The notes beneath the pieces were generated by a model, which made no database searches, was not told where the DNA came from, and was given only the letters and a program-made list of their open reading frames with translations. Of a stretch of 64,000 nucleotides of DNA, positions 2,107 to 64,000 are shown one piece after another (the first letter of the stretch is position 1; each line of letters opens with the position of its first letter). The translations under genes were made by a program, and so were the position numbers. Source of the stretch: Flavobacteriales bacterium (GTDB lineage Bacteria; Bacteroidota; Bacteroidia; Flavobacteriales_F; PHOS-HE28). The stretch covers positions 7,165 to 71,164 of the forward strand of contig JBGTAJ010000322.1 of the NCBI GenBank assembly GCA_041749915.1, given 5' to 3'.

Positions 2107-2625
2107 TCAATGGGGCAACTTGTCGCGGAACACCCCGTACACGTAGGTGCCCAGCCAGGCGCTCAGGAAGGTCACGATGATCACGGAGTAGCCTGCACCG
2201 ATCTGCGCGAACAACGGGCCCGGACAGGCACCGGTGACGGCCCAGCCCAGGCCGAAGAGCAGACCGCCGTAGATCTGTCCCTTGTTGAAGGTCTTCGCAG
2301 GGATGTGGACCTCCTCGCCGTAGATGGTGCGCACCTTGAAACGCTTGATGAGCTGGATGCTGATCAGGCCCACCACCACGGCGGTGCCGATCACCCCGTA
2401 CATGTGGAAGCTCTCGAAGCGGAACATCTCCTGGATTCGGAACCAGCTGATGATCTCGGCCTTGAAGAACACGATGCCGAAGAGCACGCCCCAGGCACTG
2501 TATTTCAGGTTGTACCACCAGGGGTGTTGCAGTTCACTCTCGTTGACGCAGATGGAATCGAGTTCCCGTGCCTGAAGGTCGGCAAGCTCCTGCGGGGTCG
2601 GAGTATGTTGAAAGGTATGTGCCAT
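2107..2625 (-). CDS. YeeE/YedE family sulfur-compound transport membrane protein
   Basis: 172-aa polytopic membrane ORF with the GACPGP motif typical of YeeE/YedE (sulphur transport) proteins. It is the second of a tandem pair. Confidence 0.85.
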   Translation of the reverse strand: MAHTFQHTPTPQELADLQARELDSICVNESELQHPWWYNLKYSAWGVLFGIVFFKAEIISWFRIQEMFRFESFHMYGVIGTAVVVGLISIQLIKRFKVRTIYGEEVHIPAKTFNKGQIYGGLLFGLGWAVTGACPGPLFAQIGAGYSVIIVTFLSAWLGTYVYGVFRDKLPH

Positions 2626-2628
2626 GGG

Positions 2629-3192
2629 TCAGAGCGTGAGGAGATGGGGAAGGATGAACCAGGTCATGATGATGCCGCCCACCATGAAACTGATGGTGGC
2701 CACCAGACTGGGCCATTGCAGGCTGCTGAGGCCCATGATGGCATGGCCGCTCGTGCAACCACCGGCGTAGCGTGTTCCGAAGCCCACCATGAATCCGCCG
2801 AGCACGAAGAAGATGAGGCCACGTACGGTGAAGAGCTGCTCCCAGCTGAAGATCTCCGAGGGCAGCAGGCTTGAGGTGTCGGTGATGCCTTTCGATGCCA
2901 GGTATTCCTGCGTGGGTGCGGCCAGCACGATGGGGTTCGGGTCGCTCAGGAACTGCGCCGCGAGGAACGCGCCCACGGCGATGCCGCCCACGAAGAAGAG
3001 GTTCCAAGCCTCCTTCTTCCAGTCGTACTTGAAGAATTTTACATCGCCAGGAATGCAGGCGGCACAGAGGTGGCGCAGCGAACTGCTGATGCCGAAGGTC
3101 TTGTTGCCAACGAGCAACAGGAAGGGCACGGTGAGGCCGATGAGGGCACCCGCCACGTACCAGGACCAGGGTTGTTTGAGTGTCTCGAGCAT
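2629..3192 (-). CDS. YeeE/YedE family sulfur-compound transport membrane protein
   Basis: 187-aa membrane ORF with the GGCTSGH motif of YeeE/YedE. There is a 3-nt gap to the downstream paralogue. Confidence 0.85.
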   Translation of the reverse strand: MLETLKQPWSWYVAGALIGLTVPFLLLVGNKTFGISSSLRHLCAACIPGDVKFFKYDWKKEAWNLFFVGGIAVGAFLAAQFLSDPNPIVLAAPTQEYLASKGITDTSSLLPSEIFSWEQLFTVRGLIFFVLGGFMVGFGTRYAGGCTSGHAIMGLSSLQWPSLVATISFMVGGIIMTWFILPHLLTL

Positions 3193-3201
3193 GAGGGGAG
3201 G

Positions 3202-3240
3202 GATCAGAAGATCAGAGGATCAGACGATAAGACGATCGCC
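3202..3240 (+). repeat. Tandem 8-bp array GATCAGAA GATCAGAG GATCAGAC GATAAGAC GATCG
   Basis: Read directly from the sequence. The period is 8 and every unit carries GATC. It lies between the upstream YeeE gene start (3192) and the four-helix-bundle gene stop (3259). Confidence 0.9.
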
Positions 3241-3258
3241 ATGATCCGATGATATCGT

Positions 3259-3714
3259 TCAGGGTTTCAGTTTGGCGTTGCTGGATGAGATGATCTTGTT
3301 GAGGACGCGAATGATCGGGATCAGCTTGTCGAGGCAAGGCTTTGCTGCCTCGATGTTCCGCGCACTGCTGAGCAGGAGCCAGTATTCCGTTTCGTCAGCC
3401 TCCTTCAGGGCTACCTTCATCTTGTGGATGAAGTCAGCGAGGCTTTCGCCGTTCTGCGCTTCACGGACCAGTGCACCAATGGCGGTCCCACTTCGGAACA
3501 ACTGGTTCGACAGGGCGAATTTCTTCCGTTCCTGCAGCTCCTCGGAAAGGTCCCAGATCGCCAATGCGAAGTCGAAGGTGAGGTTGACGATCGCGTTGTC
3601 CTTGTAGCGATCATTGTACGAGGCTGGCGGTTCGGCCGTCAGGGATGAACCGAACAACTCATCATGGACGATGACGTTCTGCCATTCCTTGATATCGATG
3701 TCCTGGATGCTCAT
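3259..3714 (-). CDS. Four-helix-bundle protein (23S rRNA intervening-sequence protein / Avd-like family)
   Basis: The 151-aa ORF contains ...FDFALAIWDLSEEL...LSNQLFRSGTAIGALVREAQNGESLADFIHKMKVALKEADETEYWLLL..., the characteristic core of TIGR02436/PF05635-type proteins. The N-terminal ~35 aa are atypical, so the true start is uncertain. Confidence 0.75.
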   Translation of the reverse strand: MSIQDIDIKEWQNVIVHDELFGSSLTAEPPASYNDRYKDNAIVNLTFDFALAIWDLSEELQERKKFALSNQLFRSGTAIGALVREAQNGESLADFIHKMKVALKEADETEYWLLLSSARNIEAAKPCLDKLIPIIRVLNKIISSSNAKLKP

Positions 3715-3727
3715 GGTCGCGTGAATT

Positions 3728-3759
3728 GTCTGATCGTCTGATCAACTGATCGTCTGATC
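3728..3759 (+). repeat. Tandem 8-bp array GTCTGATC GTCTGATC AACTGATC GTCTGATC (reverse complement of the 3202-3240 unit)
   Basis: Read directly from the sequence. Positions 3728-3743 are the reverse complement of 3218-3233 at 15 of 16 positions. It lies between the four-helix-bundle start (3714) and the upstream gene stop (3764). Confidence 0.9.
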
Positions 3760-3763
3760 GGGC

Positions 3764-5179
3764 TTACTTCTTCAACGTGCTGGGGCAGACGTAGTCCGTC
3801 ACCTTCACGTCGGTGTTGGTCTTGATGGCGTTGAACCCTCCGGCCACATCGATCACGTTGTGGTAACCACGCGATTTCAACAGGCTGGCCGCGATCATGC
3901 TGCGGTAGCCACCGGCGCAGTGGATGTAGTTGGGCTCCTCCTTACTGAAGGCCGCCAGGTTCTGGTTGATGAACTGCAACGAGGCGTGCCACGCACCGTC
4001 CACATGCTCGGCCTCATACTCACCGTCCTTGCGCACGTCCACCACACGGAGCTTGTTCGCACCGAAGCGCTTGGCGAACTCCTCGGCGGAGATGCTCTCC
4101 ACCGTGTCCACGTCAAGGCCGGCGGTCTTCCACGCGTCGATGCCGCCTTTCAGGTAGCCGAACACGTTGTCGTAGCCCACGCGGGCCAGACGTGTCACCA
4201 CTTCATCTTCCATGCCCTCGTCGGTCACCAGCAACAGCGGGTGCTTCACGTCGGGGACCATCGCACCGACCCAGGGTGCGAAGTCGCCCTTGATGCCGAT
4301 GTTGATGCTGCGGGGTACGAAGCCGTCCTTGAAGGTCTGTGCACCGCGGGTGTCCAGTACCAAGGCTCCCTCGGTCTCGGCCACGAGCTCGAACTGTTCG
4401 GGGGTGAGGGCACGGAGGCCTTTCTCCTTTACCGTATCCACGCTCTCGATCATGCCCTTGTTCATGGCCACGTTCTGCGGGAAGTAGGCGGGCGGAGGCA
4501 ACAGACCGTCGGTGACCTCCTTGATGAACTGCTCCTTGGTGGCGGCCTTCAGCGCGTAGTTGGTCTTCTTCTGGTTGCCCAGCGTATCCCAGGTCTCCTT
4601 GCTCATGTTCTTGCCGCAGGCGCTGCCGGCGCCGTGTGCAGGGTACACCAGCACGTCATCGGGCAGGGTCATGATCTTGTTGTGCAGGCTGTCGTAGAGG
4701 TAACCTGCCAGGTCCTCCTGGGTCAGCGAACCCATTTTCTGGGCCAGGTCGGGACGGCCCACGTCGCCGATGAACAGCGTGTCGCCGCTGAAGATCGCGT
4801 GCGGTCTGCCCTTCTCGTCGCTCAGCAGGTAGGTGGTGCTCTCCATGGTGTGGCCAGGGGTGTGCAGCACCTTGATGGTGATCCGGCCCACCTTCAGTTC
4901 CTCACCGTCCTTGGCGATGTGCGCCTCGAAGCTCGGGTTGGCGTTCGGACCGTAAACGATGGGCGCACCGGTCTTCTTCGACAGGTCGAGGTGACCGCTC
5001 ACGAAGTCGGCGTGGAAGTGGGTCTCCAGCACGTACTTGATGATGGCACCGCTTTGCTCTGCGCGTTCCATGTACGGCTGCGTTTCACGCAGTGGGTCGA
5101 TGATCACGGCCTCACCGGCGCTTTCGATGTAGTAGGCGCCCTGTGCCAGGCAGCCGGTGTAGATCTGCTCGATCTTCAT
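3764..5179 (-). CDS. MBL-fold persulfide dioxygenase fused to two rhodanese domains (Blh/CstB-like)
   Basis: I chose the start at MKIEQIYTGC (ATG 5179..5177). The 41 aa upstream in the track ORF are low-complexity. It has the metallo-beta-lactamase motif THFHADFVSGH and a C-terminal rhodanese active-site loop CAGGYRS. Confidence 0.9.
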   Translation of the reverse strand: MKIEQIYTGCLAQGAYYIESAGEAVIIDPLRETQPYMERAEQSGAIIKYVLETHFHADFVSGHLDLSKKTGAPIVYGPNANPSFEAHIAKDGEELKVGRITIKVLHTPGHTMESTTYLLSDEKGRPHAIFSGDTLFIGDVGRPDLAQKMGSLTQEDLAGYLYDSLHNKIMTLPDDVLVYPAHGAGSACGKNMSKETWDTLGNQKKTNYALKAATKEQFIKEVTDGLLPPPAYFPQNVAMNKGMIESVDTVKEKGLRALTPEQFELVAETEGALVLDTRGAQTFKDGFVPRSINIGIKGDFAPWVGAMVPDVKHPLLLVTDEGMEDEVVTRLARVGYDNVFGYLKGGIDAWKTAGLDVDTVESISAEEFAKRFGANKLRVVDVRKDGEYEAEHVDGAWHASLQFINQNLAAFSKEEPNYIHCAGGYRSMIAASLLKSRGYHNVIDVAGGFNAIKTNTDVKVTDYVCPSTLKK

Positions 5180-5186
5180 GGTATGG

Positions 5187-5212
5187 GGAGTTGAGGAGTT
5201 GAGTGTTGAGGT
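5187..5212 (+). repeat. Short tandem repeat GGAGTTGA GGAGTTGA GTGTTGAG
   Basis: Read directly from the sequence. It sits immediately upstream (minus-strand sense) of the persulfide dioxygenase start codon. Confidence 0.8.
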
Positions 5213-5246
5213 GGTCGGGGAGGGGAATTTTCCGCCCGTATGGACC

Positions 5247-28016: not shown

Positions 28017-28020
28017 GGGG

Positions 28021-28080
28021 AGTTGTGTGTTGGCAGTTGGCAGGAGTTGGGAGTTGGAACAACCCTCAACCACTCAAACC
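28021..28080. repeat. AGTTGG microrepeats followed by inverted CAACC repeats
   Basis: GTTGG occurs at 28029, 28036, 28046 and 28053. Then CAACCCTCAACCACTCAAACC runs from 28060 to 28080. The spacer is convergent and the dyad is imperfect. Confidence 0.75.
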
Positions 28081-28090
28081 CGGCCCCCAA

Positions 28091-28726
28091 CTACCTCAAG
28101 AACGGATTGCTCCGCTTTTCCCTGCCGATGGTCGTTTCCGGTCCGTGGCCGGAATAGACCACCACCTCATCGCCCAAGGGGAACAGCTGTTCCCGGATGC
28201 TCCGTAGCAGGGTGTCCAGGTCGCCACCGGGCAGGTCCGTCCGGCCGATGCTGTTCATGAACAGCACGTCGCCGGCGATGACGAAGTGCTGTGCCTCGCA
28301 GAACAGCGCCACGTGGCCCGGTGCATGTCCGGGGACGAACAGCACCTTGAGGGTGTCGCTTCCCAGGGTGATGGTCTCGCCCGGCACCAAGGCCCGGCCT
28401 GGGGAAGGGCCTTCCTCGTAGGGCAGGCCGTACATCCGGGCCATCTGTGGAGCCCCGGCGTAGAGCTCGTGGTCCGCGGGATGCAGGTCGGGCGTAAGGC
28501 CATAGCGCGAATTCGCCCAGGCGCAACCGAACACATGGTCGATGTGGGCGTGGGTGAGCACAAGATGTACGGGGGTCAGTGCGTTCTCCGCCAGATAGGC
28601 CTCCAGCTCATGTTCCTCCGTCGCGTTCCAGCATCCCGGGTCGATCAAAATGGCCTGCGAACCATTGTGGATGACATAGGTGTTCTCCTGGAACGGGTTG
28701 AAGGTGAACTTGGCAACTCTTAGCAT
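28091..28726 (-). CDS. MBL-fold metallo-hydrolase (glyoxalase II-like)
   Basis: 211 aa with the motif LTHAHIDHVFG (HxHxDH) and a downstream GHAPGH. Confidence 0.9.
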   Translation of the reverse strand: MLRVAKFTFNPFQENTYVIHNGSQAILIDPGCWNATEEHELEAYLAENALTPVHLVLTHAHIDHVFGCAWANSRYGLTPDLHPADHELYAGAPQMARMYGLPYEEGPSPGRALVPGETITLGSDTLKVLFVPGHAPGHVALFCEAQHFVIAGDVLFMNSIGRTDLPGGDLDTLLRSIREQLFPLGDEVVVYSGHGPETTIGREKRSNPFLR

Positions 28727-63500: not shown

Positions 63501-64000
63501 CCCATGGACAACCAGTTCGATGGCTGGGATGGGACCAATGACAAGTGGGACTTCCTGGTCACGACCACCTACACACCCATTTCGTATTGGCACCGCAACA
63601 GCGGGGTTGATCCGTTCGTGCCGCAGGTGAGTAGCGACCCGGTGATCGCCGCCCAGAACTTCTTGATGAACCCTCAGCAGGTGATCGTCACGCCGACGAA
63701 TACCTGTAACAAACGCATCCAGCGCTTACCCGGCCTGTCGGATGGTTTGTCCCCAGGAGAGGTCAAGGAGTTCATTGAAACGGAGAAGATCGCCTATGGC
63801 ACTACGCGCTACCTGTATGATCAACTGATCGATGGGGGAAGTACGGACGAAGTGGTACAGGAAATTACGGATGCCTGGCCTCAGGATGCCTGGGACCTGC
63901 GTGCTTACCTCATGAGCAAGAGCCCATACCTGAGCACTTCGGTGCTGAAGGACCTGAACGCACAGAACAAGCTCCCTCAAGCCATGTACGTGGAGGTATG
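60558..64000 (+). CDS. Giant secreted Cys-rich protein with parallel beta-helix-like repeats. N-terminal 1147 aa or more; the gene runs off the right window edge.
   Basis: Absent from the ORF track because there is no stop in the window. My own translation from the ATG at 60558 is MNTWKQIRSVAWAASIVVWGGAGISDASGQ..., which stays open for 3443 nt to the window end. It has repeated N-C/x-x-N-x-x-I-G type segments (VELTNCSVSNAYIGIL, VIANGCTFRNCITAV, LNRCRFNGSTFVV). All opposite-strand track ORFs here are short and low-complexity. Confidence 0.8.
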   Translation, partial: MNTWKQIRSVAWAASIVVWGGAGISDASGQADALVLTNATGTNAAWLDLPTDIPGQNDATRTLPSPGGPNGYAGNPATRAQHIRTNGDGSIIFFVVDGVVYDGDGYRIADAAGSNCTQCMEAGVMEFLSVPVPGTCGLYYLFAATAKNTSTEGHVNVSLLDMSADREAPLPGQPACSVRKGLLLSLDDTDLTDLYPQFDPWFTEAFFSGPSYVKRLNIDASGKSSSPIIRVVAGATQNDPSFLFVVMTTTIHPYKIMGSGVFPVNAILPSQTFPLGLSYYPLSYSLNSPLTQKEYYRDADARRLTNGQIRVAITGGQGFAEWPEDGVDNFITLEFDGTSGAVVPGSIDGYEIFPTPLGVNCNTAVGSPGVLAGCAIAADGNRVYLTSEVYSTCSNWIPTFGYVDLSSGQFVDMSADVVLTNEYVRSRIYRNIVGGTGEEILYIPGNTGVGVVTGLATSTPAFVPDAFDDDRAPVLVSSITQSYYRPRFLNPSVSGDQHLSAASKEQCCGYFETVPGAAVEGYTQAAGTTSTWNGTQNGVQAGTSTVVFTCDVIVEQGARLVVNNMNLKFAANARVIVQEGGYLQMNNATLDGIDCPGDRWPGISVLGNPGQSQQGQAPWGVPLGQGMVELTNCSVSNAYIGILTGTGTVGFNGYLYNISSSQGGAVVIANGCTFRNCITAVDMRKYPDFVPQGQPLPLNRCRFNGSTFVVDQPFNSAPFNFKRHVRLDRVSGILFRKCHFQNLVNDAEYATLGSAALGYGIESYESQFQVLPSCSILLNVGEECPAGNIVPSTFTGLDHGIHAIGGPNALRNFTVDGARFTDNICGVYTSGVIGFVAKRSIFEIGGRGVPQTNPLESPFWADFHRGLYSYNGYGFTVQDNTLSRSVNAGNDIRTEGVVIGYSKDHNDVVFRNTGANLLRGFVGEGVCASLAPSYTPVIGLQLKCNINQNNEWNLVSRKANDEDDDLQDLHTIRANQGESNLPMDNQFDGWDGTNDKWDFLVTTTYTPISYWHRNSGVDPFVPQVSSDPVIAAQNFLMNPQQVIVTPTNTCNKRIQRLPGLSDGLSPGEVKEFIETEKIAYGTTRYLYDQLIDGGSTDEVVQEITDAWPQDAWDLRAYLMSKSPYLSTSVLKDLNAQNKLPQAMYVEV

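Follow-up and report, generated by a model that had tools for sequence, protein, structure and literature searches.

Intervening sequences (IVSs), which interrupt bacterial 23S rRNA at helix 25 or 45 and which RNase III removes with no religation, can carry an open reading frame (ORF) of the S23p family, as in Leptospira, Coxiella burnetii, Xanthomonas and Brucella (Warrier et al. 2016, PMC4990558). In Coxiella, three to four tandem GACAGAT heptamers, whose number varies between strains, stand immediately 5' of the S23p ATG and within a 28-bp stem of terminal inverted repeats, and RNase III cuts the first repeat, as seen in vitro and by rapid amplification of cDNA ends (PMC4990558). According to a citation in PMC4990558, the S23p protein of Xanthomonas forms a homopentamer. 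S23p/PF05635 is a very large family, and structures have been solved since 2006-2007, with no known function outside the Avd proteins of diversity-generating retroelements (DGRs). Here we describe a gene of this family enclosed by inverted octamer arrays within a sulfur operon, on a 64,000-nt stretch of DNA from a Flavobacteriales bacterium (contig JBGTAJ010000322.1; hereafter the window, to which all positions refer). The nearest known systems are the S23p-bearing 23S IVSs and, in functional terms, the Correia/NEMIS hairpins of Neisseria.

As an architecture, an IVS-like cassette in an mRNA operon is supported by the gene, its arrays and their relatives described below. On balance we lean towards an intervening-sequence-type cassette that resides in an mRNA operon instead of 23S rRNA, with RNase III cleavage of its stem as the likeliest consequence, because such cleavage has been shown for the homologous Coxiella structure and stems of 28-40 bp are within the range of the enzyme. 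The cassette and its host genes comprise:

3193 to 3763, minus strand: the entire cassette, equal to the PDO-YeeE spacer (comparison of relatives)
3728 to 3760, minus strand: F array, the 5' arm (Tandem Repeats Finder: period 8, 4.1 copies, consensus GTCTGATC)
3715 to 3727, minus strand: leader of 13 nt from the F array to the ATG (minus strand AATTCACGCGACC; transcript letters AAUUCACGCGACC)
3259 to 3714, minus strand: PF05635/TIGR02436 gene of the S23p family, 151 aa (profile matches, structure model, dN/dS)
3238 to 3258, minus strand: spacer of 21 nt from the stop codon to the R array (part of it pairs with the leader in the duplex prediction)
3202 to 3237, minus strand: R array, the 3' arm (Tandem Repeats Finder: period 8, 4.5 copies, consensus GATCAGAC)
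3764 to 5176, minus strand: upstream host gene PDO, a persulfide dioxygenase-like protein of metallo-beta-lactamase fold that has rhodanese domains (profile search)
2629 to 3192, minus strand: downstream host gene, a YeeE/Sulf_transp half-transporter (profile search; orthologues in relatives)

The operon reads, on the minus strand, ArsR, TauE, PDO with its rhodanese domains, the 151-aa gene, two YeeE/Sulf_transp halves and a SoxA/TsdA-like cytochrome c. An earlier note on this DNA had proposed that a four-helix-bundle ORF at 3259-3714 interrupts an otherwise coherent sulfur operon between inverted octamer arrays; the profile matches, the gene order and the indel status of the segment bear out the first part, and the repeat finder together with a 35-nt inverted repeat (86% complementary, arms 488 nt apart) the second. 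The gene is flanked by mutually inverted (GATCAGAN)x4 and (NTCTGATC)x4.5 arrays. In minus-strand order, the F array is GATCAGAC GATCAGTT GATCAGAC GATCAGAC (GAUCAGAC GAUCAGUU GAUCAGAC GAUCAGAC in transcript letters) and the R array GTCTTATC GTCTGATC CTCTGATC TTCTGATC (GUCUUAUC GUCUGAUC CUCUGAUC UUCUGAUC in transcript letters). Two further details of the same note also held: positions 3218-3233 (GATCAGACGATAAGAC) and 3728-3743 are reverse complements at 15 of 16 positions, and the arrays contain nine GATC sites (5 + 4).

The array pair is unique within the window. A two-unit pattern with up to three mismatches matched seven times in the 64 kb, six of these inside the two arrays and the last, a 3-mismatch match, at 63815; shuffled sequences gave 0.77±0.79 matches, and none of 100 shuffles reached seven. 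The leader is conserved among the sulfur-context relatives L200, L204, L208 and L209 (L numbers are our handles for loci) and also in L249, where it is fused to YeeE. No rRNA match was found by Rfam at 2900-4100, and the flanks are protein genes, which places the cassette outside 23S rRNA; no Rfam family matched the region (E-value mode) or 18 related loci (gathering mode), and the defence models of PADLOC gave zero matches. A sigma-70 promoter and terminator scan, which is of little value in Bacteroidota, found nothing like a terminator on the minus strand from PDO to YeeE, and a promoter belonging to the cassette itself is not evident.

We compared the cassette with true IVSs by scanning for GACAGAT arrays. 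Among the matches listed, which lie outside Coxiella itself, four loci had PF05635 ORFs (97-121 bits). In two of them, L281 (Rhodospirillales) and L328 (Burkholderiales), a full-length Rfam large-subunit rRNA match encloses the ORF, which makes these loci true 23S IVSs; their 5' flank reads ..CAGAA GACAGAT GACAGAT GACAG-ATG and their 3' flank holds inverted CTGTCnT units. The other two, L295 (Saprospiraceae) and L327 (Elusimicrobia), combine heptamer arrays and a PF05635 ORF in the same way outside rRNA. The unit of forward array, ORF and reverse array is thus common to rRNA IVSs and mRNA-embedded copies, across phyla.

The likeness to 23S IVSs suspected in the earlier note is real at the level of sequence. 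With the IVSs of the four genera named above and with L281 and L328, the cassette has in common the gene family, the enclosure of the ORF by terminal inverted repeats made of short tandem repeats, a 5' arm whose repeats lead to the S23p start codon and vary in number among relatives, a sporadic occurrence among close relatives, and the lack of a promoter, transcription coming via the host operon. The units themselves are one inserted T apart (GACAGAN/GACAGAT in the IVSs, GATCAGAN/GATCAGAC in the cassette). The two differ in that the cassette is hosted by a protein-coding operon and the IVS by helix 45 of 23S rRNA, and that the repeats are octamers in the former and heptamers in the latter. The cassette ORF is under purifying selection, whereas that of Coxiella is decaying and apparently untranslated, and RNase III excision has been demonstrated for the IVS, while we infer it for the cassette.

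When the 586-nt minus-strand transcript is folded to minimum free energy (MFE), the two arrays pair with each other (z = -3), as the earlier note had envisaged. The spacer-spacer duplex reached -49.4 kcal/mol, against -18.6±3.9 for shuffles (best shuffle -30.4). The predicted stem is ~35-40 bp long, can pair in several registers and is lengthened by pairing of the leader with 3238-3258. These models allow a stable long-range stem between the arrays, one that would loop out only the inserted ORF, because the base of the stem adjoins both host genes: the F array begins 4 nt past the PDO stop codon and the R array stops 9 nt short of the YeeE ATG.

The mechanism that we favour would run as follows. 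The unit, made of a forward short-tandem-repeat array, a short leader, an S23p/PF05635 gene and the same repeats inverted, is inserted co-directionally, without an evident promoter, between the co-transcribed PDO and YeeE genes. On the polycistronic transcript, the arrays would pair into the ~35-40 bp stem with the inserted gene looped out, and RNase III, which is specific for double strands, would cut this stem. The operon transcript would then be split into a PDO part, a free message for the inserted gene (IVP) and a YeeE part, or the host genes would at least be insulated from the insert. Stem formation in vivo, cleavage by RNase III and an effect on the flanking genes are steps that we infer.

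We then asked how general this arrangement is, using 80 loci from Flavobacteriales, Chitinophagales, Cytophagales, Sphingobacteriales and Bacteroidales that encode relatives of the protein with 50-92% identity. Nearly all 80 have period-8 arrays, forward upstream and inverted downstream of the gene. A flank inverted-repeat score of at least 16 was reached by 59 of 76 PF05635 genes and by 2 of 271 controls taken from the same loci at positions shifted by 2-3 kb, and 57 of 70 loci beat all 50 of their shuffles in tests restricted to the arms, RNAduplex on 200 x 250-nt flanks being dominated by long spurious duplexes. The shifted-position control rules out coincidental generic repeats. Inverted period-8 arrays are the normal arrangement for PF05635 genes in Bacteroidota. 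In full-text searches we met no account of PF05635 genes flanked by arrays within mRNA operons; tandem heptamers are mentioned only in the Coxiella IVS paper (PMC4990558). On these searches, the proposal that an IVS-like copy in an mRNA operon had gone undescribed stands, while its implied singularity does not.

The host operons are diverse. The gene occurs in at least eight different operon contexts, co-directional with its neighbours, including the hmgA-hppD, CoA-transferase A-B, sdhA-sdhB, accB-accC, arsC-acr3, enoyl-CoA hydratase-HADH and PDO-YeeE spacers, and a table in PMC5524665 places the gene in the gmk-nadD spacer of F. columnare as well. Across 57 low-GC loci, a same-strand neighbour lay within 450 nt upstream in 53 and downstream in all 57, and an opposite-strand neighbour in none.

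The spelling of the unit changes with the lineage: Flavobacterium has AATTAGAN, Chryseobacterium and Bacteroidales have AATTTGAN, Cyclobacteriaceae GATTCGNT and Chitinophagaceae AATTAGCT, and GATCAGAN is confined to the high-GC Flavobacteriales lineage of the window. This bears on a further idea of the earlier note, that the clustered GATC sites, nine in the two arrays, form a switch sensitive to Dam methylation. Homologous arrays built of AATTAGAN, AATTTGAN, GATTCGNT, AATTAGCT or GACAGAT have no GATC, and the tetramer is about twice as frequent across the whole window as base composition predicts (483 occurrences, or 7.5 per kb, against ~228), which makes the clustering less special. Because GATC belongs to the spelling of the unit in one lineage, we regard such a switch as very improbable, and the claim falls.

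The 151-aa protein is a member of the family, matching PF05635 with 68.4 bits (cut-off 33.8) and TIGR02436 with 79.6 bits (cut-off 24), and has 2,220 relatives at E <= 0.001. Its AlphaFold monomer model (pLDDT, the predicted local distance difference test, 85) is a four-helix bundle with helices at residues 41-62, 66-86, 92-118 and 124-149, preceded by an N-terminal extension of ~35 aa whose helix is less confident. The nearest structure by Foldseek was 2RLD (BT_0352; target-normalised TM-score 0.88, 43% identity; phmmer E 5.6e-20), followed by 2GSC (XCC0516; 0.80); both homologues have five chains in the crystal. With dN/dS of 0.06-0.16, similar to the neighbouring genes, the protein is under purifying selection and functional. 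It has fold and superfamily in common with the DGR protein Avd, as seen in Foldseek matches to phage Avd 4DWL (target-normalised TM-score 0.79) and to 8UBE. Avd is a basic protein, whereas the 151-aa protein is acidic (pI 5.2); no reverse transcriptase and no template or variable repeat adjoins the gene, whose neighbours are PDO and YeeE, and no other long direct repeat was found in 3100-3900.

The arrays themselves have a conserved core. In 100 units from 29 loci we found R (98%), A (98%), T (95%), n, n, G (89%), n, n; the register was set on 'AT', which makes positions 2-3 partly circular. Outside this core the unit drifts with genome GC, and complementarity between the arms is not maintained at its variable positions. 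Such a pattern raises the question of iteron-like sites, each 8-nt unit being bound by the S23p pentamer or by a host factor that would coat the arrays in DNA or RNA and regulate the cassette or the operon. The conservation of positions 1-3 and 6, the uncoupled variable positions, the typical count of three to five units per array beside the five-chain crystals of 2RLD and 2GSC, and the presence elsewhere in the genome of arrays that could be trans targets would all fit. Against it stand the acidity of the protein, unlike the basic Avd, and the partly circular register; moreover, binding of single-stranded RNA needs no inverted orientation. We consider such a role improbable.

Arrays also occur without the gene. 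Three perfect GATCAGAN units were found at no fewer than 119 loci, chiefly in high-GC Flavobacteriales metagenome-assembled genomes (MAGs), and a PF05635 ORF adjoined the array in only 4-5 of the 119 loci listed, a count for which our home-made family hidden Markov model was narrow and could overlook divergent members. ORF-less hairpins of forward and reverse arrays are present in the spacers of relatives. We rejected the notion that the arrays flank the PF05635 family alone, on account of solo arrays and unrelated bracketed ORFs. The earlier note had counted arrays of similar density in spacers unrelated to the family as evidence against its reading, and this partly applies: inverted arrays do flank most PF05635 genes (59 of 76), but GATCAGAN arrays lie in many gene-less spacers too.

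Two loci show what else such arrays may accompany. In L087 (1840-2439; a high-GC Flavobacteriales MAG), the hmgA-hppD slot that usually has a four-helix-bundle gene holds an unrelated 157-aa signal-peptide ORF with no Pfam match, enclosed by two GATCAGAN arrays of the same orientation. In L192 (1267-3816), small same-strand genes of 158, 247, 153 and 130 aa, which include a GyrI-like/Cass2-like one, are separated by GATCAGAN arrays and a forward-reverse hairpin, a layout resembling a cassette array. Integron cassettes with attC hairpins are likewise small, promoterless, co-oriented genes between hairpin-forming imperfect inverted repeats (compare L192). They differ from the cassette in that integrase and attI were not seen here, the arms are tandem repeats instead of attC R/L boxes, and the cassettes stand singly inside housekeeping operons.

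Several results weigh against the reading that we favour. Arm mismatches (G:U 60, A:C 86, other 305) showed no asymmetry towards wobble pairs and hence no signature of selection at the RNA level, most mismatches, the 305 others, being transversions at free unit positions. Sense arms had no energy advantage either (median -28.7 kcal/mol, antisense -31.0). The complementarity of the arms could therefore be due to maintenance in the DNA or to concerted evolution of the arrays. In many loci there are extra arrays, four in all (F1..R1-gene-F2..R2, in Flavobacterium) or three (F1-gene-F2..R, in L002, L004, L006, L208 and L209), which can fold into local hairpins in place of the long-range stem; MFE folding favoured long-range pairs in three of the four Flavobacterium loci tested. 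A purely structural stem does not require the conservation of the RATnnG core across orders. Finally, 55 of the 72 GATCAGAN arrays with enough flank have no inverted partner within 1.3 kb (the other 17 comprise 7 short hairpins and 10 that bracket an ORF), and some arrays enclose TonB_C, GyrI-like or unknown ORFs, several of which are, by Pfam, truly unrelated to PF05635.

The distribution of the cassette was followed in 80 loci fetched via the YeeE protein. Six genomes (the window, L200, L204, L208, L209 and L003) have a filled PDO-YeeE spacer of 554-595 nt with the gene, two to five forward and three to four reverse GATCAGA units; ~55 relatives with the same gene order have an empty spacer of 5-150 nt, without the gene and without GATCAGA units. 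On a neighbour-joining tree of PDO and YeeE, the filled sites fall within one clade with empty ones interleaved. The segment is an indel bounded by the arrays, a point that the earlier note had put up for checking, and gene and arrays are gained and lost as a block. Two loci show products of decay at the same site: L249 retains a forward array and an IVP-type leader joined directly to the YeeE ATG, and L221 two reverse units in the spacer. In most pairs the synonymous divergence (dS) of the cassette equals that of the flanks, which indicates an old insertion with later repeated loss or replacement. The window and L200 depart from this: over 2107-5176 the flank genes are 96-98% identical in DNA and the YeeE protein 100%, while the cassette is 86% identical, with dS of 0.66 against 0.08-0.26 in the flanks. 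Such divergence suggests exchange of cassette alleles between near-identical operons.

These spacers have further peculiarities. In L200, L208, L209, L003 and L249, the forward array extends into the coding end of PDO, where ..ST(I/V)IRK-stop (codons from GATCAGAAAATGA) replaces ..STLKK-stop. L200, the closest of the genomes, is labelled as a MAG of 'Chryseobacterium gleum', but its DNA is ~60% GC and groups among unclassified MAGs of Flavobacteriales; the label is probably wrong. Many gene-less PDO-YeeE spacers have repeat hairpins of another kind, with inverted arrays of (AATGGNN)n heptamers or with GATCGGNN arrays (L202, L203, L205-L207, L217, L219; L210, L235) or GC-rich terminator-like hairpins (L212, L214, L215). 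The spacer seems always to bear some stem-loop, with rapid turnover of the stem-loops.

Gain and loss as a block also fit a mobile cassette acting at the DNA level, in which the inverted arrays would be terminal repeats or hairpin ends of single-stranded DNA, mobilised in trans or by recombination, and RNA pairing would be a by-product. One type of cassette occurs in rRNA and in at least eight unrelated operons across phyla; solo arrays and ORF-less hairpins look like footprints or derivatives similar to miniature inverted-repeat transposable elements (MITEs). The allele exchange suggested by the window and L200, the GC dip over the cassette (0.54-0.55 against 0.60-0.63 in the flanks) and the symmetric mismatch spectrum, which fits maintenance at the DNA level, point the same way. 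Yet transposase, recombinase and reverse transcriptase are absent from the neighbours. Inverted repeats are present as in MITE- or Correia-type elements, but no target-site duplication was seen and the boundary is variable and fuzzy, the array overwriting the last PDO codons in L200, L208, L209 and L003. Equal dS in most pairs implies long vertical co-inheritance, and the strict co-orientation with host operons is not something that a DNA transposon demands. We regard DNA-level mobility as possible but doubtful as the explanation of the arrays. The two roles are compatible and may coexist; Correia elements are both mobile and targets of RNase III.

The intervening-sequence-type cassette that we prefer can also be set beside non-coding spacer repeats. 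Correia/NEMIS elements of Neisseria and REP/REPIN sequences are, like it, inverted-repeat elements in intergenic spacers that are co-transcribed into mRNAs. They are non-coding, with unique-sequence arms and defined ends with target duplications, whereas the cassette has a conserved protein gene, tandem-repeat arms and fuzzy, slippage-prone ends. Among the statements of PMC2649163 are that Correia hairpins bind RNase III, can be cut and change the expression of adjacent genes.

A bolder extension would take PF05635 genes and their inverted arrays as one ancient, self-contained 'operon parasite' moving between rRNA and mRNA operons across phyla, whose pentameric protein recognises the RATnnG/GACAGA units, about one per subunit, and directs the excision, protection or re-insertion of its own RNA. 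We think this rather unlikely; if it were true, the solo arrays and ORF-less array hairpins would be its footprints. Independently of that extension, the layout around nearly every Bacteroidota copy and in true 23S IVSs unites three things in one kind of element: elements that fragment rRNA, orphan genes for four-helix bundles, and a class of repeat hairpins in intergenic spacers. It gives a testable handle on the role of the protein and on how a gene may enter an essential transcript harmlessly. For annotation, the genes and arrays would mark internal points of processing or insulation in operons and would explain part of the short repeats in Bacteroidota spacers.

The window contains other repeats of this general kind. 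In the TauE-PDO spacer (5177-5215, minus strand), CTCAACA CTCAACTC CTCAACTCC repeats stand immediately 5' of the PDO ATG; they are the reverse form of a GGAGTTG unit found at 28017, and a clear forward partner was not seen beside them. At 28017-28100, right behind a stop codon, (GGAGTTG/GCAGTTG)x4-5 is followed by a short loop and then by CTCAACC/CCCAACT units. With this second type of hairpin unit, array hairpins of several unit types are therefore present in the spacers of this genome.

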